Assembly: GCF_963921235.1 (NCBI RefSeq)
Contig: NC_086097.1
Location: 128,342,001-128,406,000 of the forward strand
Length of the DNA: 64,000 nt
Direction: 5' to 3'
From: Mobula hypostoma
Taxonomy: Eukaryota
A program made the position numbers and the translations under genes. Positions 11,630 to 61,497 of this stretch are shown piece by piece. Positions within the stretch are counted from its first letter, which is position 1; each line of letters begins with the position of its first letter. Under the pieces are notes generated by a model. The model searched no databases. It was not told the DNA's origin and was given only the letters and a program-made list of their open reading frames with translations.

Positions 11630-12710
11630 GTGATGGGATTGGGTTTGCTGAACTTAAAGTTCTAAACTCAAACAAAAACCTTAAGCCTCTCCGACATGGA
11701 AAGCTATGCATACCCTCACTAAAAGAAGGTTATACTGTAACTGCACAATCTTTGAAAATTAGTTCACTTCCCTGTGTATTCTCTATGGTGAATTTAGCTG
11801 CCAATGTCCACTATTTGAATGGTGACCCCCCCCCCCTCCACCTTCCAAGCAAGGTAAAGATGCTTCCAGCTAACAAAGTGTTTAAGTGCAGTTTATTTAC
11901 TTTTAGTGATTCAGGTTTAAATCCAAGCAACATTTTTTAAAACACATTTAAATTCACAGATTATTTCTATCTTATACAATTTCCATATTACAAACCATTT
12001 ATAAAACACAAAGGATTACCAAAGCACAGGTACAATTCCTATAAGCTAAAAAGACATTGCATGAGCTATAGTTGAACCAGTCATCCATCAAGGAAATTCA
12101 AGGCAGAAGAATGGATTCTAGTTCACCCCCATGTTTCTGTCATTCTTTTAATGTTTCTGGACCATTCCTAATAAGCCTGAATTTCACTCCACATTTATAC
12201 TATATTTCTGCACTTGGGTAACTTCACACGCATATGATTTCTTTTACAGATACATTTCAACACAAGTGGTTTAAAAACTTCTGGAGTCAGAGCTTCCAGG
12301 TACCCACAATTAATGCTATGAAGCTAACTCTTTGAGCACATAAATCTTCTAACTATTAATAGATAGTAATATATACCAGTCTGGTCTTCCTCCTTAAACT
12401 AAATGACTTAGCCAGCATTGTCAAGTTTGAAACAAGTCCAATTAACATGGCCCATTGTCTTGCACTGCATCTCTTGAGCAATCAGTCCAAGTGCTGGTAA
12501 TCTATGGCAGTGCTTATTTGTAAAGCTGACTTTTTAACTTCAAACTGATTATTCCTTGCCAATTACATTAAGAACTGAAGACTGGCGCCTGTTAACGACA
12601 AGCAGCTAAACAAAGAGTATTAGTTGCAAGTTTCACTTACTCAAAGACAACACTTTGATCTTTATAAGCTCATAACTGCTGTGTTTAGAAAGCTGAGCTT
12701 GGCAAAAAGG
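11630..12710 (-). mobile_element. Second, diverged foamy-like ERV fragment: 5' LTR plus start of gag
   Basis: Colinear similarity to 60343-61470 (cttccagctaa(c/t)aaagt, cacaggtacaat, aagctaact(c)tttgagcacataaa, tttagaaagc). Minus strand encodes ...LKVFV*VRTLSSANPIPS, matching LKVFVRVRTSRSANPIPS at 60220-60468. Confidence 0.8.
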
Positions 12711-16044: not shown

Positions 16045-16230
16045 GTTCACAAACAAGAGAAAAGCTGCAGGTGCTGGCCAGGCAGCATCTATGGAAAAGA
16101 GTACAGTCAGTGTTTCGGGCCAAAACGTTTCAGTCCTGCTGAAGGGTTTCAGCCAGAAACGTCAACTGTACTCTTTTCCATAGATGCTGCCTGGCCTGCT
16201 GAGTTCCTGCAGCATTTTGTGTGTGTTGCA
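16045..16230. mobile_element. Penelope-like element derived inverted-repeat remnant
   Basis: ggccaggcagcatctatggaaaagagtacagt...actgtactcttttccatagatgctgcctggcc inverted arms around a mutated hammerhead core (ctgctga...gaaacgtc). Confidence 0.7.
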
Positions 16231-28906: not shown

Positions 28907-29100
28907 TATGTTGCAGTTCCTGCCTCCACCAATGGGGGCATTGTTCTGCCAATCTGGCTCCTCCACTGGGGGCACTGTGGTGTCACTCCTGCCTCATCTA
29001 GTGGGAACACCGTGCTGCACTTCCCGCCTCTTCCAGTGGAGGCACTGTGCTGCAGTTCCTGCTTCTTCAGATGGGGGCACTGTGCTGCAGTTCCTCCCAC
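28907..29100 (+). repeat. ~35-bp degenerate minisatellite, about 5.5 units
   Basis: Unit consensus tgtgctgcagttcctgcctc(n)ccagtgggggcac repeated in tandem. Confidence 0.85.
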
Positions 29101-42094: not shown

Positions 42095-43330
42095 CAGCAG
42101 TCTCCAACCACTGGGCCGCGGACTGGTACCAGGCCGCAAAGCATGTGCTACCGGGCCACAAGGAAGCGATATGATTTGGTGATATGAGTCAGCTGCACCA
42201 TTTCTCATTCCCTGTCACGTGCTGTTGAGCTTGAACGCACGCGAGGTCATTACCCGCACATCATCCGTGTCAGCGCGGGAAGGAGATCAACTCCTTGAGC
42301 TTGCAAATGATGGCGGGCTGAAAAGTATGTTTGAAAAAACATCTCTGCCGGCATTCTGGATCAAAGTCAAGGCTGAATATCCTAAGATAACCACGAAAGC
42401 ACTGAAAATATTGCTTCCATTTCCAACATATCTCTGCAAAGCGGAGTTTTCTGCAATGAATGCAACGAAAACTAAATTGCGGAATAGACTGGACATAAGG
42501 AACCCCCTTCGAGTATCACTGTCTCCCATCACCCCGTTAGGACTGTCTTGCTGCAGGGAAACAAGCACAGGGCTCCCACTGATTCGGCGATATTGGTGTG
42601 TTGCAATGATTTTATATGTTCATATGGGGAAAATATGTGCTGTGTGTTTAATATCCAAACATTACTTAAAATGTTATGATGCTGTTGACTTATAAGTGAC
42701 TTATATAACCATATAACAATTACAGCACAGAAACAGGCCATCTCTGCCCTTCTAGTCCGTGACGAACACTACTCTCACCTAGTCCCACCGACCTGCACTC
42801 AGCCCATAACTCTCCATTCCTTTCCTGTCTATATAGCTATCCAATTTTTCTTTAAATGATAACATTGAACCTGCTTTTACCACTTCTACTGGAAGTTCAT
42901 TCAACACTTACTTCAAGCTCCCCTGTCCTCCCCTGATAATTGACTTATCACTGTGTTCATGCAAGGAAAATATGTGCTGTGTGTTTAATATTAAATTCGT
43001 TAGATAGACCCTTTTAGAAACGAAATTGAGTGTATTAGCCACTTACCAACTATATTCTGGTCATGATTAACACACCCACCCCCGAACAGAATCGCCAAAA
43101 ATGATTTGCAGAAAAAAATCAACACGTACACGCATATGCAGGTCACACATGCGCACTGTGCCCGTGCAAGGCTTCATGGTCATTGTAGTCTTTCTTGGGG
43201 TAAACACAATGTATTTGACTGCTACTCTTGTCCGTCGGCAACCCTACCCTCCCCCCCAGGTCGGCCGGTCCGCAAGAGTGTTGTCAATAAGAAACCGGTC
43301 CGCATTGCAAAAAATGGTTGGGGACCCCTG
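42095..43330 (+). mobile_element. Charlie/Buster-type hAT deletion derivative with C-terminal transposase fragment
   Basis: TIRs cagcagtctccaacc / ggttggggacccctg; exact 8-bp TSD ctctagtt (42087-42094, 43331-43338); ORF 42219.. FWIKVKAEYPKITTKALKILLPFPTYLCKAEFSAMNATKTKLRNRLD; carries a CR1 3' fragment at ~42705-42900. Confidence 0.92.
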
Positions 43331-44686
43331 CTCTAGTTCACTGCACTGTGTAGTGATTTGATCTGTATGAACAGTATGCAAGACAAGCTTTTCGCTATAT
43401 TTTGGTACATGTGACAATAATAAAACAGTACCATGACCAAATTCAGGAAGATTGTGAAAATCATAATTTTATTGAATGGCGGAGCAAGCACGAGAAGTTA
43501 AATGATCTTCTCCTGAATTTATTTCTATGTTCTTTCTCTAAACGTTCTTTGAGTTGGTATTTAATTATTGACAATTATTTAATTTACACAGTTAAATGGT
43601 TTTGAATTCCAAAAGAAAGTATGGACCTTTATTTGAAAGTAATACTTTGCTGGGTTTCATAGCTGTTAGACATTTTCTGGGGCCGCCTTAGTACACAACC
43701 AGTGGCTCTGACACCATCCTGATTATATCACTGACATCCAAGCTGTTCTGGACAAATGTGATCAGTGTTCAGCTGCTGGACTGGGTGAGGATAGACATGG
43801 TGGGGCAACAGAAGACACACTGTAAAAATATATTTGTTAAGTTTTAAAAGGACATTTATTTCTAAGGCCCGAATGGGGTTGGGATAGGAACAGCTCCATT
43901 GTATTTAGAGCAAGTGCACTTCACAACTCAAGTGGACCTTTAAAGAAGCAAGTGATTGAAAGAAGGATAAGTAAATAGAAGAAAGTTGTACATTTGTATC
44001 TTGCCTTGTGGAACATTGCAAATTACTTTATGACTCTAAACCCTTAAAAGTAAAATGTATTTTGAGTATAATCACTGATGTAGCATAGGAAACACAACGA
44101 CCAATTATCACACAGAGAGCTCCCACAGACAGTCATCAAATAAAAGTCAAGGTCAAGTTTATTATCATGCAAACAAATACAAGTATGCACAGGTGCAATG
44201 AAAATCTTATTTGCAGCAGTATCACAGGTAAATAGTATCAGATACATAATACTCATAAGAAGAAAAGCATAGACATAAATTAATAAAAAATCACACAAGC
44301 AAGAACACAGTTAGGACAAAGAGAGTCTATTGTATTGTAAAATGATTAAAGTAGTCATAAGATTGCCTTACTACAGTAGTGAGCAATCTCATGACTATTA
44401 TGACTGCTAGGTTGGGCAGGTTGGTTAAAGAAGCAAATTGTTGAAGTAGCTGTCCTTGAACCTGGTGGTATGGGACTTCAGGTTTCTGTATCTCTTGACA
44501 AACTATAGCTGCAAGAAGATTAGAGAATATTGTTCTGGTTGCTGCTATGGGATAAACCCACTGAATTCTACGCAACCATCCAGAAGTGCCTTTGTGCTGC
44601 ATTTCCTTTCAACTACACATAAGCTTAAATTCTTGCACTCATATCTCTGGAACGGAGCCCAGCCTCATTAGCATGTGTACACAGTA

Positions 44687-45036
44687 GAAAGTTTACTTAC
44701 AACTGTTTGTGAATTTTCACATGGAAGCTGCTATTTAGAAAGCAAGCTTTGCAAACAGGAGATAGAAGCGGATATCTATCACACACAAAATAATCTGCAG
44801 ATGCTGGGATCAAAGCAACACTCACAACATGCTGGAGGAACTCAGCAGGTCGGGCAGCATCCGTGGAAATGATGAGTGGACGTTTCAGGCAGGAACCCTT
44901 CATCAGAACTGAAGAGGGAAGGGGCAGAGACCCTATAAAGAAGGTAGGGGGATGGTTGGAAGGCGAAGGCGTTCTCCTTCCAACCCTCCCCCCACCTTCT
45001 TTATAGGGCCTCTGCCCCTTCCTTCTATCTATCACA
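44687..45036 (-). repeat. 3' LTR remnant (first 97 bp, starting TGTGATAGATA), split by a Penelope-derived insertion
   Basis: 44687-44783 aligns to 61401-61497 with about 10 differences in 97 columns (manual count). Confidence 0.85.
44787..45025 (-). mobile_element. Penelope-derived insertion with hammerhead core and 14-bp TSD
   Basis: TSD tatctatcacacac at 44773-44786 and 45026-45039; minus strand CTGATGA-agggttcctgcct-GAAACGTC at ~44879-44906; internal inverted repeat gaagggg cagag..cctataaagaaggt / accttctttatagg..ctctgccccttc. Confidence 0.8.
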
Positions 45037-46843: not shown

Positions 46844-47075
46844 CAGAATTGGAGAGGGATAGGAACAGACAAGTTAGGGAAACATTTATTTGGAGTAAGG
46901 GTAAATATGAGGCTATCAGGCAGGAACTTGGAAGAATAAACTGGAAACAGATGTTCTCAGGGAAACGTACGGAAGAAATGTGGCAAATGTTCAGGGGATA
47001 TTTGCGTGGTGTTCTGCATAGGTACATTACAGTGAGACAGGGAAAGGATGGTAGGGTGCAGTAACCGCGGTGTAC

Positions 47076-48632
47076 TTAAGGAAGTGCTTAAGGAAGTGGC
47101 CCAAGAAATAGTGGATGCATTAGTGATAATTTTTCAAAACTCGTTAGATTCTGGACTAGTTCCTGAGGATTGGAGGGTGGCTAATGTAACCCCACTTTTT
47201 AAAAAAGGAGGGAGAGAGAAACCGGGGAATTATAGGCCGGTTAGCCTAACGTCGGTGGTGGGGAAACTGCTGGAGTCAGTTATCAAGGATGTGATAACAG
47301 CACATTTGGAAAGCGGTGAAATGATCGGACAAAGTCAGCATGGATTTGTGAAAGGAAAATCATGTCTGACGAATCTCATAGAATTTTTTGAGGATGTAAC
47401 TAGTAGAGTGGATAGGGGAGAACCAGTGGATGTGGTATATTTGGATTTTCAAAAGGCTTTTGACAAGGTCCCACATAGGAGATTAGTGTGCAAACTTACA
47501 GCACACGGTATTGGGGGTAAGGTATTGGTGTGGGTGGAGAATTGGTTAGCAGACAGGAAGCAAAGAGTGGGAATAAACGGGACCTTTTCAGAATGGCAGG
47601 CGGTGACTAGTGGGGTACCGCAAGGCTCAGTGCTGGGACCCCAGTTGTTTACAATATATATTAATGACTTGGATGAGGGAATTAAATGCAGCATCTCCAA
47701 GTTTGCGGATGACACAAAGCTGGGTGGCAGTGTTAGCAGTGAGGAGGATGCTAAGAGGATGCAGGGTGACTTGGATAGGTTGGGTGAGTGGGCAAACTCA
47801 TGGCAGATGCAATTTAATGTGGATAAATGTGAAGTTATCCACTTTGGTGGCAAAAATAGGAAAACAGATTATTATCTGAATGGTGGCCGATTAGGAAAAG
47901 GGGAGGTGCAACGAGACCTGGGTGTCATTATACACCAGTCATTGAAAGTGGGCATGCAGGTACAGCAGGCGGTGAAAAAGGAGAACGGTATGCTGGCATT
48001 TATAGCGAGAGGATTCGAGTACAGGAGCAGGGAGGTACTACTGCAGTTGTACAAGGCCTTGGTGAGACCACACCTGGAGTATTGTGTGCAGTTTTGGTCC
48101 CCTAATCTGAGGAAAGACATCTTTGCCATAGAGGGAGTACAAAGAAGGTTCACCAGATTGATTCCTGGGATGGCAGGTCTTTCATATGAAGAAAGACTGG
48201 ATGAACTGGGCTTGTACTCGTTGGAATTTAGAAGATTGAGGGGGGATCTGATTGAAACGTATAAGATCCTAAAGGGATTGGACAGGCTAGATGCGGGAAG
48301 ATTGTTCCCGATGTTGGGGAGGTCTAGAACGAGGGGTCACAGTTTGAGGATAGAGGGGAAGCCTTTTAGGACCGAGGTTAGGAAAAACTTCTTCACACAG
48401 AGAGTGGTGAATCTGTGGAATTCTCTGCCACAGCAAACTGTTGAGGCCAGTTCATTAGCTATGTTTAAAAGGAAGTTAGATATGGCCCTTGTGGCTACAG
48501 GGGTCAGGGGGTATGGAGGGAAGGCTGGGTTCTGAGTTGGATGATCAGCCATGATCATAATAAATGGCGGTGCAGGCTCGAAGGGCCGAATGGCCTACTC
48601 CTGCACCTATTTTCTATGTTTCTATGTTTCTA
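47076..48632 (+). mobile_element. Young 5'-truncated CR1 with uninterrupted RT/C-terminal ORF (47048..48535)
   Basis: 495-aa ORF with [41 protein letters not shown]; (TTTCTATG)3 tail; tgtac duplicated at 47071-47075 and 48633-48637. Confidence 0.95.
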
Positions 48633-50808
48633 TGTACAAAGGCTGTTGTAAATCTAGTCAACAAGAAAAGAAAAGCTTACGAAAGGTTCAAAAACTAGGC
48701 AATGATAGAGATCTAGAAGATTATAAGGCTAGCAGGAAGGAGCTGAAGAATGAAATTAGGAGAGCCAGGAGGGGCCATGAGAAGGCCTTGGCAGACAGAA
48801 TTAAGAAAAACCCCATGGAATTCTACTAATATGTGAAGAGCAAGAGGATAAGATGTGAGAGAATAGGAGCAATCAAGTGTGACAGTGGAAAAGTATGTAC
48901 GGAACCGGAGGATGAATACTTCACTTTAGTATTCACTACGGAAAAAGATCTTGTCAATTGTAGGGATGACTTACAGTGGATTAAAAAGCTTGAGCCTGTA
49001 GATATTAAGAAAGAGGATGTGCTGGAGCTTTTGGAAAGCATCAAGTTGGATAAGTCACCGGGACAGGACGAGATGTACCCCAGGCTACTGTGGGAGGCAA
49101 GGGAGGAGATCACTGAGCCTCTGGCGATGATCTTTGCATCATCAATGGGGACAGGAGAGGTTCCAGAGGATTGGAGGGTTGCAGATGTTGTTCCCTTATT
49201 CAAGAAAGGGAGTAGAGATGGCCCAGGAAATTATAGACCAGTGGGTCTGACTTCAGTGATTGGTAAGTTGATGAAGAACATCCTGAGAGGCAGGATTTAT
49301 GAACATTTGGAGAGGCAGAATATGATTAGGAATAGTCAGCATAGCTTTGTCAAAGGTTGGTCGTGTCTTACGAGCCTGATTGAATTTTTTGAGGATGTGT
49401 CTTGTCTTAACACATTGATGAAGGTAGAGCAGTAGATGTAATGTATATGGATTTCAGCAAGGCATTTGATAAGGTACCCCATGCAAGGCTTATTGAGAAA
49501 GTAAGGAGGCATGGCATCCAAGGAGACACTGCTTTGTGGATCCAGAACTGGTTTGCTCACAGAAGGCAAAGGGTGTCTGTAGACAGGTCATATTCTGCAT
49601 GGAGGTCAGTGACCAGTGGTGTGCCTCGGGGATCTGTTCTGGAACCCGTACTCTTCATGTTTTTTATAAATGACCTGGATGAGGAAGTGGAGGGATGGGT
49701 TCGTAAATTTGCTGATGACACAAAGGTTGGGGGTGTTGTGGATAGTGTGGAGGGCTGTCAGAGGTTACAGCAGGACATTGATAGGATGCAAAATTGGGTT
49801 GAGAAGTGGCAGATGGAGTTCAACCCAGATGAGTGTAAGGTGGTTCATTTTGGTAGGTCAAATATGATAGTAGAATATATTATTAATGGTAACTCTTGGC
49901 AGTGTGGAGGATCAGAGGGATCTTGGGGTCTGAGTCCACAGGACACTCAAAGCTGCTATGCAAGTTGACTCTGTGGTTAAGAATGCATACGGTGCATTGG
50001 CCTTAATCAATCGTTCCCGGTGCTAGAAAAGGCTCTCTTTACTCTTTCCAATCCTATGCTCAAAAGCCCTCATTGGTACTTCCCAGTGTAGGATTTCCCT
50101 GTGCGATTTTCACGTTATAATACAGTATTCACTTCCTTAATCCTAGCTGGGACATGTTTTCCAAACCTCAAAGGAACATAACCATTATAACTTTCCATAA
50201 AGCTGCGACAATAACGCATCAATGTCCATTTTATAAGTACATATTAGTCCATCTTTAGAATCTCCTTCCCCACAAACTGTTCTTTCCAATTTCTTGATTC
50301 AAATCACTGTCTCAGTCGCCATCAGTTCATTCAGTCAGCTAGCAATATGTTTAAATCTGTTGAAGATAGTTAGTTCACCTCCTTCACAGGTGTGTTCACA
50401 TGGCTTTTAATGTAGTGCACGACTTTACTCAGATTTCCTGAAAACAAGTCTTGTAAATAAATTACTGATACTGTAGTGTTGTCTTCTTTTGCCTAAAGAT
50501 TAGTAATCTCACATCTTAATTATAGAAATTTATATCCATCAGTTACACGATTTCACAATGTAATAATATACATAAAAAATGAAACATTTACAAAAGTAAG
50601 GAAGAATACAGTTCTCCTGTTGAGAACTCAGTCTATACCTTTCATTCTAAGCTCCCAGAAAAAAACATGTCGCAATGTAAGAGTTGGTTTTGTCCCTCCC
50701 CTAGGAGTGAATACCCATCAGTATGCTGTAACTTAATATTCTAACACCAACCATACCATCTGCATGAGTTTCTTCCTATTTTCGTGATTTCAAACTCTAC
50801 ATATAATT

Positions 50809-50955
50809 GGAAAAGAGTATAGTCGACAATTTGGACCAAGACCCGAAACGTCGACTATACTCTTTTCCACAGATGCTGCCTGGCCTGCTGAGTTTCTCCA
50901 CCATTTTGTGTGTGTTGCTTGCATTTCTAGCATTTACAGATTTTCCCTTGTTTGT
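50809..50955 (+). mobile_element. Penelope-derived hairpin remnant
   Basis: Perfect 19-bp inverted repeat ggaaaagagtatagtcgac (50809-50827) / gtcgactatactcttttcc (50850-50868) around cccgaaacgtc. Confidence 0.75.
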
Positions 50956-51786
50956 GACTGATTGACATTTAATTCTTCCAGTCTTTCTCCTTCACTTTTT
51001 TTAAGGATTGGACCTAACTGAGAACTTTTGTGTTTACCCAGAAAACTTTAACTGAACAAGGACTAGTCAGTCTGTTCTGTCAAACCACAACCCATGGGAT
51101 TTTATAAATCTAATAATACAAATTGTTCTGGCAGTGAATATAACACAAATAGCACTAGTAATAGGCTTGGTGGTCCTTCTTGTTGTTTTGTAGGAGTACC
51201 ACGTACAAAATACATGCTTATACCTGAGTAACAAGTAAAAGACCCACAGACAGTTCTACCTTGTGACAATATCACACTTTGTAGACCTTGGAACTGTTAG
51301 GATTACATCTCCATTTCCAAAAGAAATCACAACAAAATAAATAAAAAGCTATCAGGAGAGTACTATGTCTCAGAGATAGCTATCTTTCTCCTTCTGTTAA
51401 GTCTTCCACCATTATGTATCATTACATAGTACAATAGATGGTTTTAAAATTCAAAGGAGTAAACCACGATGGAGTAATATCATTATTGGCAAAGAATAAC
51501 ACATATACAAAGTACATTATCTAAAATCTTAAGCACCATCTATATAAAAAGTTACCTTTGTTAAAAGGTAAATATGCAACATCCAAATAGGTAATTAAAA
51601 ATAACATTTATCAACTCATCTTTCCGTAGGATTGTAATATATTCGCAACAGACATATCCCAACCCCCAAAAGGATGAGGCGAGAAACATGCATGTTTGTA
51701 TGCAATGTTTGTGATCAGGATTAGGAAAAGGAGAGGAACAAGGATAACATGATCAGGGCAGTCCCTGTTCTTCACTTTCATGTCGC

Positions 51787-53075
51787 ACTCATCTCAATAA
51801 TAAGCAAATGCTTTGAGAGGCTGGTCAAGGATTACATCTGCAGCTTGCTACCACCCAAAATGAGCCCCCTACAATTCGCCTAATAACCCAACGGTCGACT
51901 GACGACGCAATAGCCACTGCTTGACATACTGTCCTTACACATCTGGAGAAGAAGAATGCTTATGTGAGAATGCTGTTCTTGGACTACAGTTCAGCATTCA
52001 GCACCATAGTTCCAATCAGGCTTGACAAGAATCTCAGAGACCTGGGCCTTGACCCTGCGTTGTGCAGCTGGATCCTGGAATTCCTGTCAGATCGCCAGCA
52101 GGTGGTAAGAGTGGGCTTCCTCATCTCCAACCCTCTGACTCTCAATACAGGAGCCCCTCAGGGCTGTGTACTGAGTCCCCTCCTTTACTCCCTGTATACC
52201 CATGACTGTGTTGCCACCCACAGCTCTAATCTGCTAATTAAATTTGCCAAAGACACCACATTGATTGGCCTTATCTCAAACAATAACGAAGTGGCCTACA
52301 GGGAAGAAATCACCTCTCTAACACAGTGGTGTCAAGAAAACAACCTCTCCCTCAATGTCGCAAAAACAAAGGAGCTGGTTGTGGATTACAGGAGGAATGG
52401 AGATGGGCTAACCCCTATTGATATCAATGGAGATGGAGTTGAGAGGGTAAACAGCTTCAAGTTCCTTGACATCCACATCACCGAGGATCTCATGTAATCT
52501 GTACACATCAGCTGTGTGGTGAAAAAAGCACAACAGTGCCTCTTTCACCTCAGACAGTTGTGGAAGTTTGGCATGGGCCCCAAAATCCTAAGGACTTTCC
52601 ACAGGGGCACAACTGAGAGCATCCTGACAGGCTGCATCACTGCCTGGTATGGGAACTGTACCTCCCTAAATCGCAGGACTCTGCAGAGAGTGGTGTGGAC
52701 AGCCCAGCGCATCTGTAGTTGTGAACTTCCTATGATTCAGGACAATTACAAGGACAGGTGTATAAAAAGCACCCATAGGATCATTGGGGACCCAAGCCAT
52801 CCCAACCACAATCTATTCCAGCCGCTACCATTTGGGAAGCGGTACCGCAGCATAAAAGCCAGGACCAACTGGCTCCGGGACAGCTTCTTCCACCAGGGCA
52901 TCAGACTGATGAACTCACACTGATTTGAGTGCACTCTATATTACATTGACTGTTCTATTTATTTTAAGTTATTATAAATTACTATGATTGCACATTGCAT
53001 ATTTAGATGGAGAGGTAACATAAAGATGTTTATGTATGTGAAGGATGTAAGAAATGAAGTCAATTCAATTCAAAT
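51787..53075 (+). mobile_element. Rex1/Babar LINE RT plus 3' end nested in the provirus
   Basis: [51 protein letters not shown]; (TCAAT)n tail. Confidence 0.92.
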
Positions 53076-53621
53076 TCAGGGTGAGGATGACCCAGAGGAA
53101 TAGCTAAAGAGGTAAGTAAGTGGCAGTGTATAGCAAAGCAGTTATACAAGAGATAACCCATGGTAGTGCTGATTAGATATGGGAGTTAACAAAGTCTCAG
53201 GAGTGGAGCCGTTATACAAAAAGCAGAAGTCACCAAACTTCCATCCTTGCAGTCTCCAGTGTCACTCTACAAAAAGAGCAATACAAAAACAATAATTCCA
53301 ATAGCCAAGGGAATTCTCCATTGGAAAATTGCAAAAAAAAATCTGTAACCCAATTTAAAGTTGTTCCAATCCACCCAGAAACTATTTGCTACCATGGAAG
53401 TTAAATGTGCAGCAGCTAGGAAGGTCTTAGCTATTGTTTCAACGTGAGCATTAAGCCAGCCAGGGGTTTAATATGAGTGTCCCAAGGAAACTTATGAAAT
53501 GATGTGCCTCACTCTTCCGGTTGTGTCAGTTCTGTGACTCTCATACTGTACAGAGAAATACTCTTTTAATTTGGTTGTGTTTCTTCTAGCCTTTGTTAAT
53601 AAATACCAAGTCCTATTAGAA

Positions 53622-53692
53622 CAACCTTTTTTGATGCCATGGACCAAAAACATTAAACAAGGGGTCTGTGGACAGCAGGTTGGGAATACCTG
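53622..53692. mobile_element. Small hAT-type MITE remnant within env
   Basis: caacctttttgatgccatggacc...ggggtctgtggacagcaggttgggaatacctg with hAT-like terminal sequence. Confidence 0.45.
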
Positions 53693-54074
53693 TTTCAGAA
53701 CATTCGTTGTTGCATCTGTCATAAATTGTTCCTTAAAACCGGACTTGCATTTCCATCTTGAGATACACAACATATTGTAGATTAAATTATCAAATTACTC
53801 CAAGGGTCATTTCCTTTGTAATCCTTAAAAAGTGAATGGTAATCAGATAACAGTATGTCTGAGCATCTTTTGTTATTGGAAATTTCCGCTCTCTAAGTGA
53901 ACCAAAGGATCACATCAGTACAGTTGTGAGAGTGAGCACTGCAAGGGCATAACTGTACGGGTAGTTTTATTCTAATAATTTTTGTTAAGAATCATGGAAG
54001 ATGTTTCGGGCGAATTGTTTTCTTGTGTCTCTCTGCCTGTTGGGACTGATGTGACTGAATACATAACAATAATT

Positions 54075-54498
54075 TCTTCTCTGTGGATTGCCACCTTGTC
54101 ATGATGGAGAAGCTTGTGTGGTCCTGTGGTCCTGAAAGCGATGCCGTCTGGAGCTATGCTCCTGGTAGTGTCACCCATGGTGGTAAGGTCAAGGGTGAGG
54201 TCCCTGACAAAGAACAATCTAACCAAGACCTCAACGGTGGAACAGGCGGACGAAGTTACTTCAAACTCAATGGCTGTGAAGGCGAATGAAGGCTGCAACA
54301 AAGCTATCAGCTCCAATCGTTGTGGTTTCCATGCCATTGGAATCAGTTGTTTGATTTGTGAAGTATCGTGTGCTTCTTGGAGTGCAACACCAAGTACATG
54401 TTAAACAAATACATGCAGAGGCATCTTCATTCTGTGGGCCACTTCTTCAGAATGAAGACCATCATCCATGACCTCGAGAGATAGCCACGACGACGACG
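54075..54498 (+). mobile_element. RTE-derived short internally deleted non-autonomous element
   Basis: 10-bp TSD aacaataatt (54065-54074, 54499-54508); RTE/Expander-like 5' UTR (gccaccttgtc..ctatgctcctggtag..cacccatgg..gacaaaga); (ACG)n tail. Confidence 0.72.
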
Positions 54499-55194
54499 AA
54501 CAATAATTGAAAGATTGTCTGTGTACGTAACATTGTCGATTTAGGAAGTAATGTTATCTGTGTAACCCCAACATCTAGTTTTATCAATTGGTGAGAAAGG
54601 ATCTACAGCAGTACTTTTCAATTGGTTTCCAAGAGTAAATTTTGTTTTAGGCTTATTTCCCTAATTTCCAACTCATAGTAGAAATCTCTCTGAAATATAA
54701 TTGAACTCACCAATAATTCAGAACTAAATTTTGTTGTAAGGTGTTGTTCGTACCACAGCATGACTGTTTGATTAAGAGCAAATATGGAATCTGGGTCAAT
54801 CCAATTGTTTTCGGGACTATAATCTCTGAAAAAGCTTATTGGACTTATCAATTCCAGTTGACCAGGGAGGAAAACATTTTAGCTTCACCTTAGCTTCTGT
54901 TTCAGTGCATCTTTCCATGCAAAAACCTGTATCAAGGGCTTTGCTGAAGCCTTTTAGAATAGAATCCGCAAATGCAGGAAATTGTCATGTTACCTTGACA
55001 TTTAACAATGGAGTGGAACAGTACCTGTAGTTGGAGAAATGGAAATGTCTAAAATCTTTGAGTAAGTATCTTCATATGCTTGTGCCTATAAAGGGAAAGT
55101 GAAATAAGATATCTGACTAATGAGAAATCTTCATTAAAATATTAAGGTTCATCACAATGTTCGAGTCTGGAAGTTCTATTGAGTGTTCCCATTA

Positions 55195-57023
55195 GTTTTG
55201 TTTGTTTTATGGGAGTTGGTTTTGTGACTGCTCCTTTATTATAGACCAAACATTTTTTCACAATTTAAAAAAAATTGCTTCCATCACTCAACATGTAAGG
55301 TCACCAGTATAACATGGCTAATTTCACTTGAGTGGCTTGTCTGCCATCATGATTCTGAATGAATCCTTGATGGACTTCTTGAATCAGTGCTTCCTGCTTG
55401 TGGGCAGGTGGGATTTGCCTCATCTTTTTTAGGACAGTATACCCAAGCCTTACCTTCACTTTCAGCGTCAAATTTATACTGTGTTGAAAATCCTCTGGAA
55501 TTGGGTTAGTAGTATCTAGGAGACTCTTAAAACATGATCCTGGTTAATTTTTTTATTTGTTACTTTGTTACTACCAAAACTTTGGCCTTCCTTGCTGTAG
55601 TCAAGTCCACCCTGTCATCTTGTTTTACACGTTTATTACCATGGCTGTATAGGAGGCCTGCAATATGGCCTGGGATGTATAACGCCTGTACTAATGGTCT
55701 AGTCAATAATAACTCATAATTATTCTTCCACGTGGACAAATGTGGAAGCAGTTTACCTCTGTGTGTTCTTCATCTGGTAGTTGGCCTGAAGGAAAAATCT
55801 CTTTCTATTGCATTCCTAAAATAATTAGAATCAGTACACATCAAGACTGGTCTGTTGCCTTTACTTACTTTAGACATAATTCTGGGGCTTTAGCCTCTGC
55901 AAGTTGAGCTGTATGATTCCCTAAAGGATGCACTTGCAAGTCGTTGTTCAAATTCAATTTCCGATAAAAATTTTCCTTTTATAATCAAAAGCAAGGATTA
56001 TCATTGAGTGGATTTATCTCTCTGGAGTTTCAGTGCTGATCTATCATAATACCATATTTGAGAACAGTTCTCAAAAGGATCTCATGCTATATTAGGTCAT
56101 AGCAATGTTTGTTCCACAGCTTCCATGAAAGATGCAAGTTATACGTCATAGCTCTCCGGAAAGTATTCCAGCTTTAGGGTGTCATCTTGTAAAAGTATTT
56201 GCCATTCTTGTATCCAGTAAGGGTAGCTCTCCATTCATTTGTTGGGAACTTGCTAATTCTTTAAAGTGACAAACTCTGTTTGTATAATAATTGGTTTGTC
56301 CCTTTGCAGTGGTCTTACAGCAATAAGCATATAGAAACCATAGTAAGACATTGTTCTAAGATAGTAAATTTCTGTTCCGTTGAGATGAAATTACATGAGG
56401 CATGGTGTATGGCTGCTTGTGTTTCTTCTCGCTCATTATAGCAGATGGCTGCAGCGGTTTATGGAGAAACACAAAATCGCAGAACAAAAGTTTTTGTTAG
56501 CTCCATTGTCTGAAGGTCTATTGCTTGCTGACCTGTATTCGACAATTTCTTTCATGTCTCATAATCTTTTGGATTTCCTCAGTTTCCATCTGTCATATAA
56601 TGTTTTTGACAATTGAGCATAGTCAGGTAAGAAAGCTCTAACATAACTCAGTAGGTCTAGGGCTGATTGTAAGGCTTTATGGTCTTTGGATATCCTACTT
56701 AAGCAATTTTTTGTCTAAATTCAGGGGTTAGACCACATCCCTGATTAGTAATTGTTATATTGTTATAACTATGGTACTTCTGTATGAGAGAGCTGAGATT
56801 TTTTTAATGTTAATTACATATCTTTCAAAGCTTATTAGTTAGTCTGTTACTTTCAAGAAGTGGGAGTGACCAGAAGCCATTGGCCAGATATGGGCACAAT
56901 TTAAACTTCTAGAAGTCAATCCTTGCTGCATTTGTTGTAATGTCTATTGCCGTATCAAAACAGCAGAGCTAATTTTGCCACCAGTACAAGCTAGGCATAT
57001 GGAAAGTCCAGTATCGTATTCAT
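55195..57023 (-). pseudogene. pol: Foamy-like pol (PR-RT-RNase H-IN N-terminus), with large internal deletions
   Basis: ATG 57023 MNTILDFP; PR-like FDTAIDIT; RT LANGFWSLP, YVINIKKS..ITNQGCGLTPEFRQK..KDHKALQSALDLLSYVRAFLPDYAQL, FISTEQKFTILEQCLT; RNase H PLGNHTAQLAEAKA (55895-55927), PVLMCTDSNY, LPHLSTWK, IPGH..GN; IN GFSTQYKF, IPPAHKQEALIQEVH..HDGRQATQVKLAMLYW*PYM..CEKC. Confidence 0.93.
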
Positions 57024-57391
57024 CAGATGGAGCATTTTGGATAGAGTTATTGCTAAAATTCTCCTGTGCATTTTTATTACATTAATGTTAGCCTTCTCCA
57101 TCTTTAGATTTTGTTTTCCCTGAGCTGCAGGGAAGAGAGTAGGTGTTTGGGACTGACCCTGTCCCTTTGTATATTTAGAGGGTGAAAGATGAGGTGCTCT
57201 TCATGGTGTGTGCTCAGTTGTAAATTCTTCTCCATAAAATATTCCCTCTATTCTCGAAGGAGCATCTTGATCTAAAACTTTCTTCTGCAAAGAAAGGTGC
57301 CAGAGCTAAAGGCTGTGGCATATACCTAGTGTCTAGCCATCCAGGTAGTGGGTGAATATCTCCTACCTAAGGCTGGCATTCTCCAGGGAAC

Positions 57392-57598: not shown

Positions 57599-58339
57599 AT
57601 TCTCCAGGGAACGTTGTTTGGTTTGCTGATTATTTCTTCCCTGCTGAGGATCTTGTGTGGGAGAATGCTGTGAATGTGATTGAACCAAGGAATAAGGTTG
57701 GTCTGGTGACTTGGTTATGGACCCTACATGCCCTTTAGGGGGGAAAGGGGAGGATCCTGTGCTGGTATCTCATTGCCCTTGTGTGGGAATGAACGGTAAT
57801 CCTGCTACCACCACGTGCGTGCGTAGGATCTCAACAACCTGAAATTGCTCACGTATCAGGTGTTGATTAAGGGCTATTTCCACATGGTTAAAGGACTAAA
57901 GCGGTAAATAGAATGAACTTGGTCTCCACCTGCCCTTGTTATTTGTTCTCATTTTAAAAGCTGTTATTAAGCCCTGGCTTCCAACTATTTTAATCATACA
58001 GCACAAAATCCTCCATGTATATCTCCACCATTAATCTGCTTATAAATTCACTCATAGATCTGATATGGATTTCCACACTTATGTGAAGGTGGTACCAAGG
58101 CTATGGGAAATATTCATAATAAGAATTGCTGAATATGTTGGGGAGTTTCACTGGCCCAGAAGGCCTGCAGCCTCCTGGCATTCTGAAGCAGCCACTTCAG
58201 AACTCCTTCAGCATCAGCTGGAGGCATGGAACAGACTGCCTGCAAACTCTCTATAGTCCAAGGTCCAAAAACTTGATGGGGAAGCTGTTGTGGCTCTCTG
58301 TACAGGAACCTATCCATGTATTCTTATTTTACTGCTACA

Positions 58340-59730
58340 GTCAACCTTTTTTTTAAAAAAAAGGATGTAGGCAAAAGAAGGGCAACTATAGGCCAGTCAG
58401 CTTAACATCTGTAGTTGGGAAAATGCTTGAAGCTGTCATTAAGGAAGAAATAGCGAAATATTTAGAGAGGAGTGGTTCCATTAGACAGACATAGCATGGA
58501 TTCAGAAGGGGCAGGTCCTGTTTGACAAACTTACTGGAGTTCTTTGAGGACATAATGAGTGCAGTGGATAGAGGCAAGTAAGGTACAGATGCAAGGAGTC
58601 GGAGGAAGCGTATTGGCAGGGATAGTGGATTGGTTAACCGATAGAAGGCAGAGAGTTGGTATAAATGGGTGTTTCTCCGGTTCGCAGTCTGTAGTGAGTG
58701 GGGTGCCGCAGGGGTCGGTGCTGGGCACGCAGTTGTTTACCATTTACATTAATGATTTGGAAGAGGGGCCTGAGTGTAGCGCAGCAAAATTTGCCGATGA
58801 CACTAAACTAAGTGGAAAAGCAAATTGTACAGAGGATGTGGATAGTCTGCAGAGGGATATAGATAGGTTAAGTGAGTAGGCCAAGGTCTGGCAGATGGAA
58901 TACAACGTTGGTAAATGTGAGATCATCCATTTTGGAAGGAATAATAGAAGAGCAGATTATTATTTAAATTGTGAAAGATTGCAGCATGCTGTTGTGCAGA
59001 GGGACTTGGGAGTGCTTGTGCATGAAACGCAAAAAGTTGGCTTGCAGGTACAACAGGTTATTGATAAGGCAAATGGAATGTTGGCCTTCATTGCTAGAGG
59101 GATTGAATTCAAGAGCAGGGAGGTCATGCTGCGACTATACAGGGTACTGGTGTGGCCGCACCTGGAGGACTGTATGCAGGTCTGGTCTCCATATTTGAGG
59201 AAGGATATTCTGGCTTTGGAGGCAGTGTAGAGGAGGTTCACCAGGTTGATTCCAGGGATGAAGGGGTTAACCTAAGAGGAGAGATTGAGTCGCCTGGGAC
59301 TATACTCTCTGCAGTTCAGAAGAATGAGAGGGGATCTTATAGAAACATACAAAATTTTGAAAGGGATAGATAAGATAGAAGTAGGAAAGTTGTTTCCATT
59401 GGTAGGTGAGACTAGAACTAGGGGACATTGTCTCAAGATTCAGGGGAGAAGATTTAGGACGGAGATGAGGAGAAACTGTTTTTCCCAGAGAGTGGTGAAT
59501 CTATAGAATTCTCTGCCCAGGGAAGCAGTTGAGGCTTCTTCACTAAATATACTTAAGAAACAGTTAGATAGGTTTTTATATAGTAAGGGAATTAAGGGTT
59601 ATGGGGAAAAGGCAGGTAGATGGAGCTGAGTTTATGGACAGATCAGCCATGATCTTATTGAATGGCAGGGCAGACTCGATGGGCCAGGTGGCCTATTCGT
59701 ACTCCTATTTCTTATGTTCTTATGTTCTTA
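58340..59730 (+). mobile_element. CR1 LINE RT plus 3' end nested in gag
   Basis: [39 protein letters not shown]; (TTCTTATG)n tail; internal deletion near 58575. Confidence 0.93.
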
Positions 59731-60517
59731 ACATTTTTAATAATTCTAGTGCATTTTCCCAAGCAAACTGTTCTCTGGGCTTCATGAGTACCTCTCAGGT
59801 TTACTGGTGTGAGCACTATCTTACATGTGCCTTTAAATAATACATGATATCCCTACGAATCAGGATTAAGATATGGGTCACCAGGCTCTATCACATAAGT
59901 ATGTGGACTTCAACTGCGTGCTTGGTTTGTATCTAAACGGGGGCCAGTTTGTTGTCTCCAGCTACGAAATATGCTACATTGTTGGGATCTGGTACAAATT
60001 GTGATGGTCTGAGACCAGCAGGTCGTACAGCAGAATTTGGTATGTTTAATCTGCATCCTGCTCTATGTTCTATCCATTCATCATTCCAGTCTCTAGCCTC
60101 AAGAATGAAATATTCATCCACTTGAGGAGCAATCGGGGTAGTATCCTATATTTCTGTTATTCTGCGTATCGATAATATCAACCAGCATTTGCCTACTGAA
60201 AACCAGGATGTTGACCTTTTTATAATACTATGTGGTGTCCTGTAGCATTTATCAAGAACTGTCTGAGTTGGACTACTGCTAAACAATAATTCTTTCTAAA
60301 ATAATACTTTTGGTATAATGTGACCAAGTCGGGAGCCAAGTATGATGGTATTGGGTTAGCTGACCGTGAAGTTCTAACTCGAACGAAGACTTTAAGCTCT
60401 ATCTGATATATAATACCCATGAGTACGCTCACTAAAGGGAGATCAAATTGTAATGATCTAATCTTCAAAACCTAGTTTACTTCCCTGTTTATTCTCCATG
60501 GTGAGATTAGCTGCCAA

Positions 60518-61497
60518 TACTTACTATTCGAGCAGTAGGTCCCTTCTCCCTATGAAGGAGAAGATACTTCCAGCTAATAAAGTATTTTATTTACAGAGAT
60601 ACATGTTTAAATCCACACAATGCTCTTACAACACATTTAAAACATTCTAACTTAAACATTTCCCAACTAAAAACCATTTCTAAAATACAAACCATTTCCA
60701 GAGCACAAAGCATAAAGCATTTCTCAAACATAAAGGATTAAAGATTCCAAAACACAGGTACAATAGCTATAAACTAAAAAGACACACCAATAATGTAAAC
60801 AAACAGGTTGTCCATAGCAGAAATTGAAGCTGGTGGAATGGATTCTCATTCAGCCCTTGGTTCTTTCATGGCTTCCTGATGTTCTTTACCTCATTCTGAA
60901 TAAGCTTGAACCTCTCTTACATTTATCTCTGTGACTTGGGTGACTTCACAAGCATGTGATTTCCTCAGATATCCTTTTAACATAAGCAGTCTAAAACAAT
61001 TTTGGAAGACAAATTGTAGATCTTAGTTAGTTACAATTAATACTGTAAAGCTAACTTTTGAGCACATAAAACTCTTCAAACCATAACCACATCAGTTATT
61101 GATATGCTCAAAGATATTATCCATCTGGTTCTGCAAGCTACCTTGAACTAAGCAAACTAAGAGTCAGCCTGTCTGTTTGAAACAACCTAAATTAAATGAC
61201 TCTTTGTCTTATACTCTACTCTTGAGCAATAATAAAGCAGGTGCAGCATCTCTTTACAGAGATCTACAAAATAGAGAGCCTACTTGCATAGCTGTTCTAT
61301 AAAGAGTGCTTTTTAAAATCTCAAACTGCCTTCCATTTACATTTTAGGATTGAAGAAAAACTTCCACTTACAACCACAAGTTAAACAAAGCAATATAGTT
61401 GAAAGTTTACTTACAACTGTTTGTGACTTTTCAATGGGAAACTGATATTTAGAAAGCAAGCTTAGCAAACATGAGATAGAAGCAAATATCTATCATA
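60518..61497 (-). repeat. 5' LTR of the foamy-like provirus (~980 bp; 3' boundary tentative)
   Basis: First 97 bp shared with the 3' LTR remnant; whole length homologous to ~11805-12710; minus-strand AATAAA at ~60587-60592 conserved in both copies; followed by TGG. Confidence 0.72.

Follow-up and report, generated by a model that had tools for sequence, protein, structure and literature searches.

The 64,000-nt stretch of Mobula hypostoma DNA analysed here (the window; G000:C1:128342001-128406000 of a 3.5-Gb genome) contains on its minus strand a decayed foamy-like provirus. A 5' long terminal repeat (LTR), a primer-binding-site-like sequence, a gag-like region, pol, env, an accessory region and a 3' LTR remnant were found in this order, and later long and short interspersed nuclear elements (LINEs and SINEs) are nested all along the provirus. 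Our subject is the accessory region between env and the 3' LTR, for which an earlier reading of the sequence (the original prediction) had proposed one or more novel accessory proteins. The region is part of the provirus, and on balance we favour reading it as what is left of two or three decayed accessory genes. The first of these would have encoded a small membrane protein with three helices, and the second a glycoprotein anchored in the membrane. For comparison 80 loci were fetched, which were picked by searches with queries from the region and hence are biased for counts of its blocks. The layout of the provirus, from its 5' to its 3' end, is as follows.

60343..61495, minus strand, 5' LTR of about 1.15 kb; the same sequence follows the accessory region in 41 of the 80 fetched copies
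60322..60342, minus strand, decayed primer-binding-site-like sequence directly after the LTR end, resembling inexactly the tRNA-Lys site in PMC6955096
59734..60330, minus strand, first part of the gag-like region, named by position
58352-59733, LINE between the two gag-like parts
57601..58351, minus strand, gag end and protease region, named by position alone, collinear with sister copies
55196..57373, minus strand, pol (reverse transcriptase (RT), RNase H and integrase start), best PDB matches to foamy Pol
53267..55170, minus strand, env, broken; sister-copy pieces match PF03408
53077..53266, minus strand, accessory region block 1, 190 nt, found in 65 of 80 fetched loci
51777..53076, plus strand, later non-viral LINE insertion (RT fragment) with RT-like open reading frames (ORFs), absent from sisters, very high repeat depth
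50967..51776, minus strand, accessory region block 2, 810 nt, found in 76 of 80 fetched loci
50810..50966, strand not assigned, later non-viral SINE-like insertion of the high-copy repeat family D5/D7, absent from sisters
50018..50809, minus strand, accessory region block 3, 792 nt, cut at 50018 by LINEs, found in 65 of 80 fetched loci
44683..44781, minus strand, 3' LTR remnant (first 99 nt), 88 of 99 nt identical to the 5' LTR start

The accessory region is part of the provirus and not host DNA, because sister proviruses hold the same blocks in the same order between env and the LTR. In the sisters, from which the LINE and SINE of the window are absent, env is followed by blocks 1, 2 and 3, the polypurine tract and the LTR, in this order. 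The original prediction had placed the region at the site of the foamy accessory genes and named its absence from sister proviruses as a sign of host DNA or another repeat; the sisters clearly carry it. An unbiased count was obtained from 20 loci picked by an env-end query without block 2, 19 of which carry block 2. DNA searches with blocks 2 and 3 scored 40 places each (the best of 1,455 and 231 candidates) at 70-78% identity, a range that excludes the window itself and short side pieces, and protein searches with stretches A and B, described below, matched 150 of 150 scored places each (of 363 and 511 candidates). The copy number of the family is at least 150. The predicted length of about 1.8 kb agrees with the 1,792 nt measured in the window copy, and the three predicted non-LINE blocks after env were located at 53266-53077, 51776-50967 and 50809-50018 on the minus strand, with the LTR remnant at 44781-44683. 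In full the region is about 1.9 kb; the window copy lacks about 130 nt of it and the polypurine tract, and about 5.2 kb of nested LINEs and one SINE separate it from the 3' LTR remnant. A LINE fragment far younger than the provirus (47036-48615), in which an RT frame is open for 499 codons, also lies between these two.

Judged from its sequence, the provirus is foamy-like (related to Spumaretrovirinae), with an RT closest to foamy Pol. The RT of a sister copy gave 8 matches in all at E<0.001, of which five were foamy Pol (E 1.6e-30 to 1e-28), and the next (Ty3 and others) had E 1.8e-6 or weaker. The pol pieces of the window match only foamy Pol structures at E<0.03, and an integrase zinc finger was matched in them at E 1.6e-4. 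Among four env surface-unit pieces from sisters, two matched PF03408 (Foamy_virus_ENV) as their sole family, weakly and below the cut-off (E 0.0012 and 0.0036); env pieces had no match in PDB, and a search of the genome with the PF03408 family, run without a working control, gave none. The LTR of about 1,150 nt lies inside the foamy-like range of about 950-1,700 nt (PMC6955096), and its copies share TATAAA (0.52 of 29) and AATAAA (0.72 of 25). The candidate primer-binding site, read in the window copy, is similar to a tRNA-Lys site and is decayed. At the border of polypurine tract and LTR, most of 11 copies have a purine tract followed by TGTG, and a minority have the exact GGGTG that is a foamy-like feature (PMC5210030). 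The position of the accessory region between env and the 3' LTR is that of the foamy accessory genes. A candidate internal promoter, TATAAA about 0.5 kb before the env end, is present in 0.34 of 38 copies and is absent in the window copy; AT-rich DNA would be expected to contain one such word by chance. Neither gag-like part has a Pfam match, and no PF03539 match to an A9-type protease was found in the window frames or the genome, where decay limits detection.

Compared with its sisters, the window copy has lost about 200 nt of RT including the catalytic motif. The site of this deletion is at 56820-56842, and the family has two RT forms, with the catalytic motif kept or lost. Near 55192 the window copy also lacks about 1.6 kb, from the integrase core to the env start, which is present in the 10 sisters compared. 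In sister copies the env start has a hydrophobic leader-like segment. At 54075-54500 env carries a 427-nt insertion that is absent from the sisters compared and matches an unrelated spot in another locus. An internal deletion of the family's env was considered and dropped, given that a teleost Env of 718 aa is known.

Coding capacity was assessed from the share of copies with a stop in each aligned codon column, no consensus being built, in an alignment of 73 rows (the window and the 72 of the 80 loci with more than 900 nt). The accessory region has 95 shared stops, compared with 122.6 +/- 7.8 in column shuffles, and its open runs of 119, 97, 94 and 72 codons all come from the first two thirds. 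The top three (119, 97 and 94) gave p 0.034 and 0.014 under two stricter nulls. The gag control gave a run of 170 codons and the pol control runs of 177, 144 and 122 (p at or below 0.001), the 170-codon run being a frame without shared stops in nine aligned rows of the first gag-like part (p<0.001). Env control pieces gave runs of 91 and 97 codons (top-three p 0.013-0.057), the longest run in the LTR control was 49 codons (p 0.95), and the antisense controls were all null, with p 0.35-0.50 for the accessory antisense strand. The accessory coding signal is modest: it is like that of env, weaker than that of gag and pol, and absent in the LTR and antisense controls. The original prediction had allowed that the family might hold no long ORF, and this is partly so: many stops are shared and the open stretches run from 51 to 167 codons, with a modest signal in the first two thirds. 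We consider it likely that the region coded at all. The stretches concerned are given below.

51531..53172, minus strand, open stretch A, 119 codons in the family, broken here by the LINE and by private frame changes
51408..51615, minus strand, open stretch A2, 72 codons, hydrophobic, in another frame than A and overlapping its end
50590..51245, minus strand, open stretch B, about 167 codons, ATG start common to 0.69 of copies, interrupted here by the SINE
50018..50492, minus strand, short open stretches C1, C2 and D of 52, 51 and 58+ codons, hydrophilic, coding p 0.14-0.17, not significant

In the sisters, stretch D is one frame that runs on from about 50178 across the polypurine tract and into the beginning of the LTR without meeting a shared stop; the alignment there is uncertain. 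In foamy viruses, bel2 overlaps U3.

Several results weigh against a coding origin or leave its form loose. The last third of the region has runs of only 58, 52 and 51 codons and no signal (p 0.14-0.17), and the longest run by itself fails to reach significance with the stricter nulls (p 0.08-0.12). Starting at the env end, 13 segments were examined for three-base compositional periodicity and none showed it (p 0.066-0.92); it is present in the preceding env piece (p 0.001). No frame has support from homologues. The purifying selection between copies for which the original prediction had suggested a test could not be demonstrated: dN/dS was 0.49-0.83 whichever frame was taken, the open frame did not stand out, and env behaved likewise. 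On this star tree pairwise dN/dS is powerless, since env shows no contrast either. A, A2 and B may be one, two or three genes, as the junctions that would set their number and ends fall in stretches of variable length. B joins runs of 57 and 94 codons, across whose junction 21 of 57 natural copies stay in one frame and several stay open, and from A into A2 one frame is read in 16 of 58 copies.

If the region were a non-coding viral filler, that is, a long spacer or untranslated region in which open stretches arose by chance, p values that are modest and come from several tests, the absence of periodicity and the absence of a homologue would all be accommodated, and there is a precedent in the tuatara foamy 'accessory gene', which was judged an artefact (PMC6669660). 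Such an origin is improbable in our judgement, since the signal is confined to the sense strand and equals that of env in strength, since LTR and antisense controls are null, and since 1.9 kb is in keeping with the coding blocks of other foamy-like viruses (PMC5512871).

The peptides quoted in the original prediction, nine in number, are all literal translations of the window. Their assembly into one or two ORFs does not stand: they hop between frames, and the window copy has more than 10 private frame changes. Of the nine, LLLVLFVLYSLPEQF and LNELM...IDALL alone are found in a long family-open frame; CIQTCM..., NVLCICVILC and CEHTCEGG... are off it, and MGYLLY... and KWTLMR... are in short frames of about 37 codons. 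The Cys-rich character that had been described is thus an artefact, the Cys-rich peptides quoted being mostly off the family-open frame. There is a stop at 53267 where the env stop was placed, and it is private to the window copy, 42 of 52 copies stopping about three codons later. The suggestion that TGA stops reflect CpG decay holds after TETVI, where a stop is found in 0.40 of copies and partner codons in 0.50. It fails after HIAS, where the TGA is common to 47 of 56 copies and has no partner codons, hence is not CpG decay.

In the favoured reading, the products would have been membrane-bound. Stretch A has hydrophobic centres near codons 21, 52 and 103, a basic loop at 34-38 after the first block, and after the second block sequons at 80 and 83, which are kept in 0.49 and 0.66 of copies; two cysteines are shared in its 119 codons. 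Its AlphaFold model consists of three long helices. These features fit a three-helix membrane protein with one cytosolic and one lumenal loop. Stretch B has a mean hydropathy of 0.76 over its first 60 codons, compared with 0.14 +/- 0.24 in shuffles and 0.15 and 0.25 in the other frames, and two sequons, at 78 and 96; it would fit a membrane-anchored glycoprotein with a predicted N-terminal anchor. The C stretches are hydrophilic, and C2 is acidic. A and B were also considered as paralogues, and this was rejected (hhalign probability 0.3%).

The membrane assignment has to be weighed against several results. The model of A is weak (pLDDT 70, pTM 0.37), and B gave no usable model (pTM 0.22). The hydropathy of A and A2 is not raised compared with their other frames or shuffles (0.53 compared with 0.68 and 0.22 in the other frames and 0.41 +/- 0.18 in shuffles). 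An off-frame reading of A is equally blocky (p 0.007 compared with 0.013), and one of nine LTR controls for blockiness reaches 0.015. The multi-pass membrane protein that had been suggested is accordingly plausible for A, with its three hydrophobic blocks, basic loop and two sequons, and is not set apart from off-frame T-rich readings. Soluble regulators with a tas/bet-like role, whose hydrophobic look would come from T-rich DNA read off frame, could account for hydropathy peaks in all three frames and for A and A2 not exceeding shuffles, and no membrane motif was detected in teleost accessory genes (PMC5210030). Against them, the longest open frames are themselves hydrophobic, the anchor of B is frame-specific, and the T-richness (0.37-0.44 in the accessory region vs 0.26-0.27 in gag and pol) is local and unusual for this A-rich genome. 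We therefore regard soluble regulators as unlikely.

No homologue was recognised, as the original prediction had stated. Pfam searches with six window frames of blocks 2 and 3 and 15 sister pieces returned only two weak matches (E 0.09 and 0.16), judged to be chance, and a PDB profile search with the alignments of A, B and C2 returned none. Among A, B and C the sensitive large-library search covered A only, and a full HMMER search with A gave 0 matches at E<=0.001 in 1.84 billion proteins. Word-based searches with B were blank and are uninformative, the RT control being blank with the same tool; phage records searched with B gave no match, nor did the ESM Atlas give a usable one for A and the first 57 codons of B. 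The model of A had no fold match in BFVD or PDB at E<=0.001. Homology to Tas or Bel2/Bet was found neither in Pfam (the same six frames and 15 pieces) nor in PDB (the same three alignments). The possibility that the region is a captured piece of host mRNA is already unlikely for A from the protein search, and for A, B and C together from the empty Pfam and PDB results; genome searches with A, B and C2 found no intact stop-free full-length gene among the places scored, and overall we hold such a capture to be very unlikely. A second, better-kept foamy lineage was not seen among the best 150 of 5,909 RT candidates in the genome; the matches there belonged either to this family (29-65% identity, with stops in almost every one) or to distant RTs with 24-29% identity.

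The family is old and its founder was likely defective. Mean pairwise identity over the 73 rows is 0.748 with a star-like tree. Between the two LTRs of one copy, identity is 69-84% in four other copies and, over 99 nt, 89% in the window copy; the rates published for sharks are uncertain. Contigs of two other species cover the insertion, which is therefore older than those splits: in species B one 921-nt contig lies over it with 14 differences and another crosses the LINE junction at 50018, and in species D a 625-nt contig covers it with 51 differences. A contig set of RNA type gives little cover of the unique blocks and has no bearing on expression. Stops in env are common to 26 of 37, 22 of 30, 37 of 41 and 36 of 50 copies, CpG partner codons being few or absent, and their frequency is roughly that expected of any inherited codon given how far the copies have diverged. 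Because these stops are common to most copies and do not reflect CpG decay, the env of the founder was likely already broken. The shared stops and frame switches of the accessory region probably have the same origin as the env lesions, a defective founder. Later lesions are seen in sub-lineages: a 20-nt frame-breaking deletion in B in 11 of 73 rows, mostly of one clade and including the window, and a 13-nt one in C2 in 10 of 73. The RT deletion was present in 31 of 39 other places scored, a count biased by a query that itself has the deletion. An RT form without its catalytic motif has multiplied, and hence was likely copied in trans.

As a gene the accessory region is non-functional today, being broken in every copy examined. 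That the window copy or another one was kept by the host as a working gene would suit the age of the insertion, which is shared with two other species. It is extremely improbable, as two insertions interrupt the window copy, which also carries over 10 frame changes, the orthologous contigs differ by 1-base gaps, and no whole open A or B was found in the places scored (best 150 of 363 and best 150 of 511).

According to the reading of decayed accessory genes, the infectious ancestor would have made accessory proteins from spliced RNAs, as foamy viruses do. By analogy only, these may have acted on host membrane-located defences or traffic, and not as a nuclear transactivator. Neither env nor the accessory genes would still have worked in the founder, which would have multiplied within the germ line, where it could do without them, and sub-lineages with further deletions in the accessory region and RT would still have been copied. 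We infer that the family spread through germ-line copying that was partly in trans and did not depend on env or accessory products, so that a foamy-like family reached high copy number after these genes broke. The genes are too decayed here to prove frames or function, and the result is offered as a lead.

A few further features of the window were recorded. At 11631-12356 lies another piece of the provirus's LTR family, more diverged (67.5% over 785 columns) and likely a solo LTR. A 170-codon frame at 42183-42695 resembles the end of a DNA-transposon transposase, for which we use a hAT-like label. Near-perfect hairpins at 16073-16199 and 44913-45026 lie within or beside SINE copies, and 28909-29098 is a tandem array of units of about 35 nt.

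Env-defective high-copy endogenous retrovirus (ERV) families resemble the present one in having many copies from a broken-env founder; in those families env is deleted, whereas here it is present with shared stops. Magiorkinis and colleagues reportedly described in 2012 that such families reach high copy number. The mammalian foamy genes tas/bel1 and bel2/bet occupy the same position and have a similar total length. Tas and Bet are soluble regulators. Neither had a match here in Pfam or PDB, and the first stretches here look hydrophobic. By position the region is an accessory block, and by the sequence comparisons it is not a member of tas or bel2.

Among described elements, close in layout are teleost foamy-like ERVs (FLERVs; AciFLERV/AcERV, AliFLERV, DrFV-2 and PpERV-1), which also have a foamy-type pol, long LTRs and orphan ORFs after env; these ORFs number two or three, are about 230-250 aa long and have no known domains, and were compared by description only. 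In the cichlid element acc1a, acc1b and acc2 of 234-253 aa follow env (PMC5512871), and in zebrafish and minnow elements there are two or three of them, with a dN/dS below 1 in most cases (PMC5210030). The Env of PpERV-1 (718 aa) is close to the approximately 690 env codons estimated here. The teleost ORFs are intact enough for such dN/dS values and lack detected membrane motifs, whereas those here are decayed and predicted to be hydrophobic; many teleost FLERVs also have ORFs between pol and env, for which no room was seen here on a cursory look. The acc genes of newts (164 aa; PMC5512871) and of stork and sea snake endogenous foamy viruses (PMC6955096) were likewise named by position, without similarity to known proteins, and are one ORF each, compared with seemingly two or three here. 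CmiFLERV (PMC5512871) and ERV-Spuma.0-Sca (PMC10699275) belong to the same virus group and, as far as can be inferred, the same host group as the present family. An accessory region of cartilaginous-fish foamy-like ERVs is not described in the text of these two papers that was covered ('accessory' has 0 occurrences in that of PMC10699275), and no description of the post-env region of an elasmobranch foamy-like virus was found, although Wang, Chen and Cui 2023 may contain one.

It is possible, if doubtful, that a shark or ray foamy-like virus had a new kind of membrane-embedded accessory proteins, a three-helix protein and an anchored glycoprotein, in contrast to the soluble regulators of described foamy and foamy-like viruses. 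If so, membrane-level host antagonists would have been invented independently in the oldest retrovirus lineage. Foamy-like viruses swap post-env genes between lineages, and those of fish have no known function. Orphan post-env genes are already known in foamy-like viruses of fish, amphibians, birds and snakes, and this family adds a likely-elasmobranch data point with, unlike the teleost set, a hint of membrane-bound proteins.

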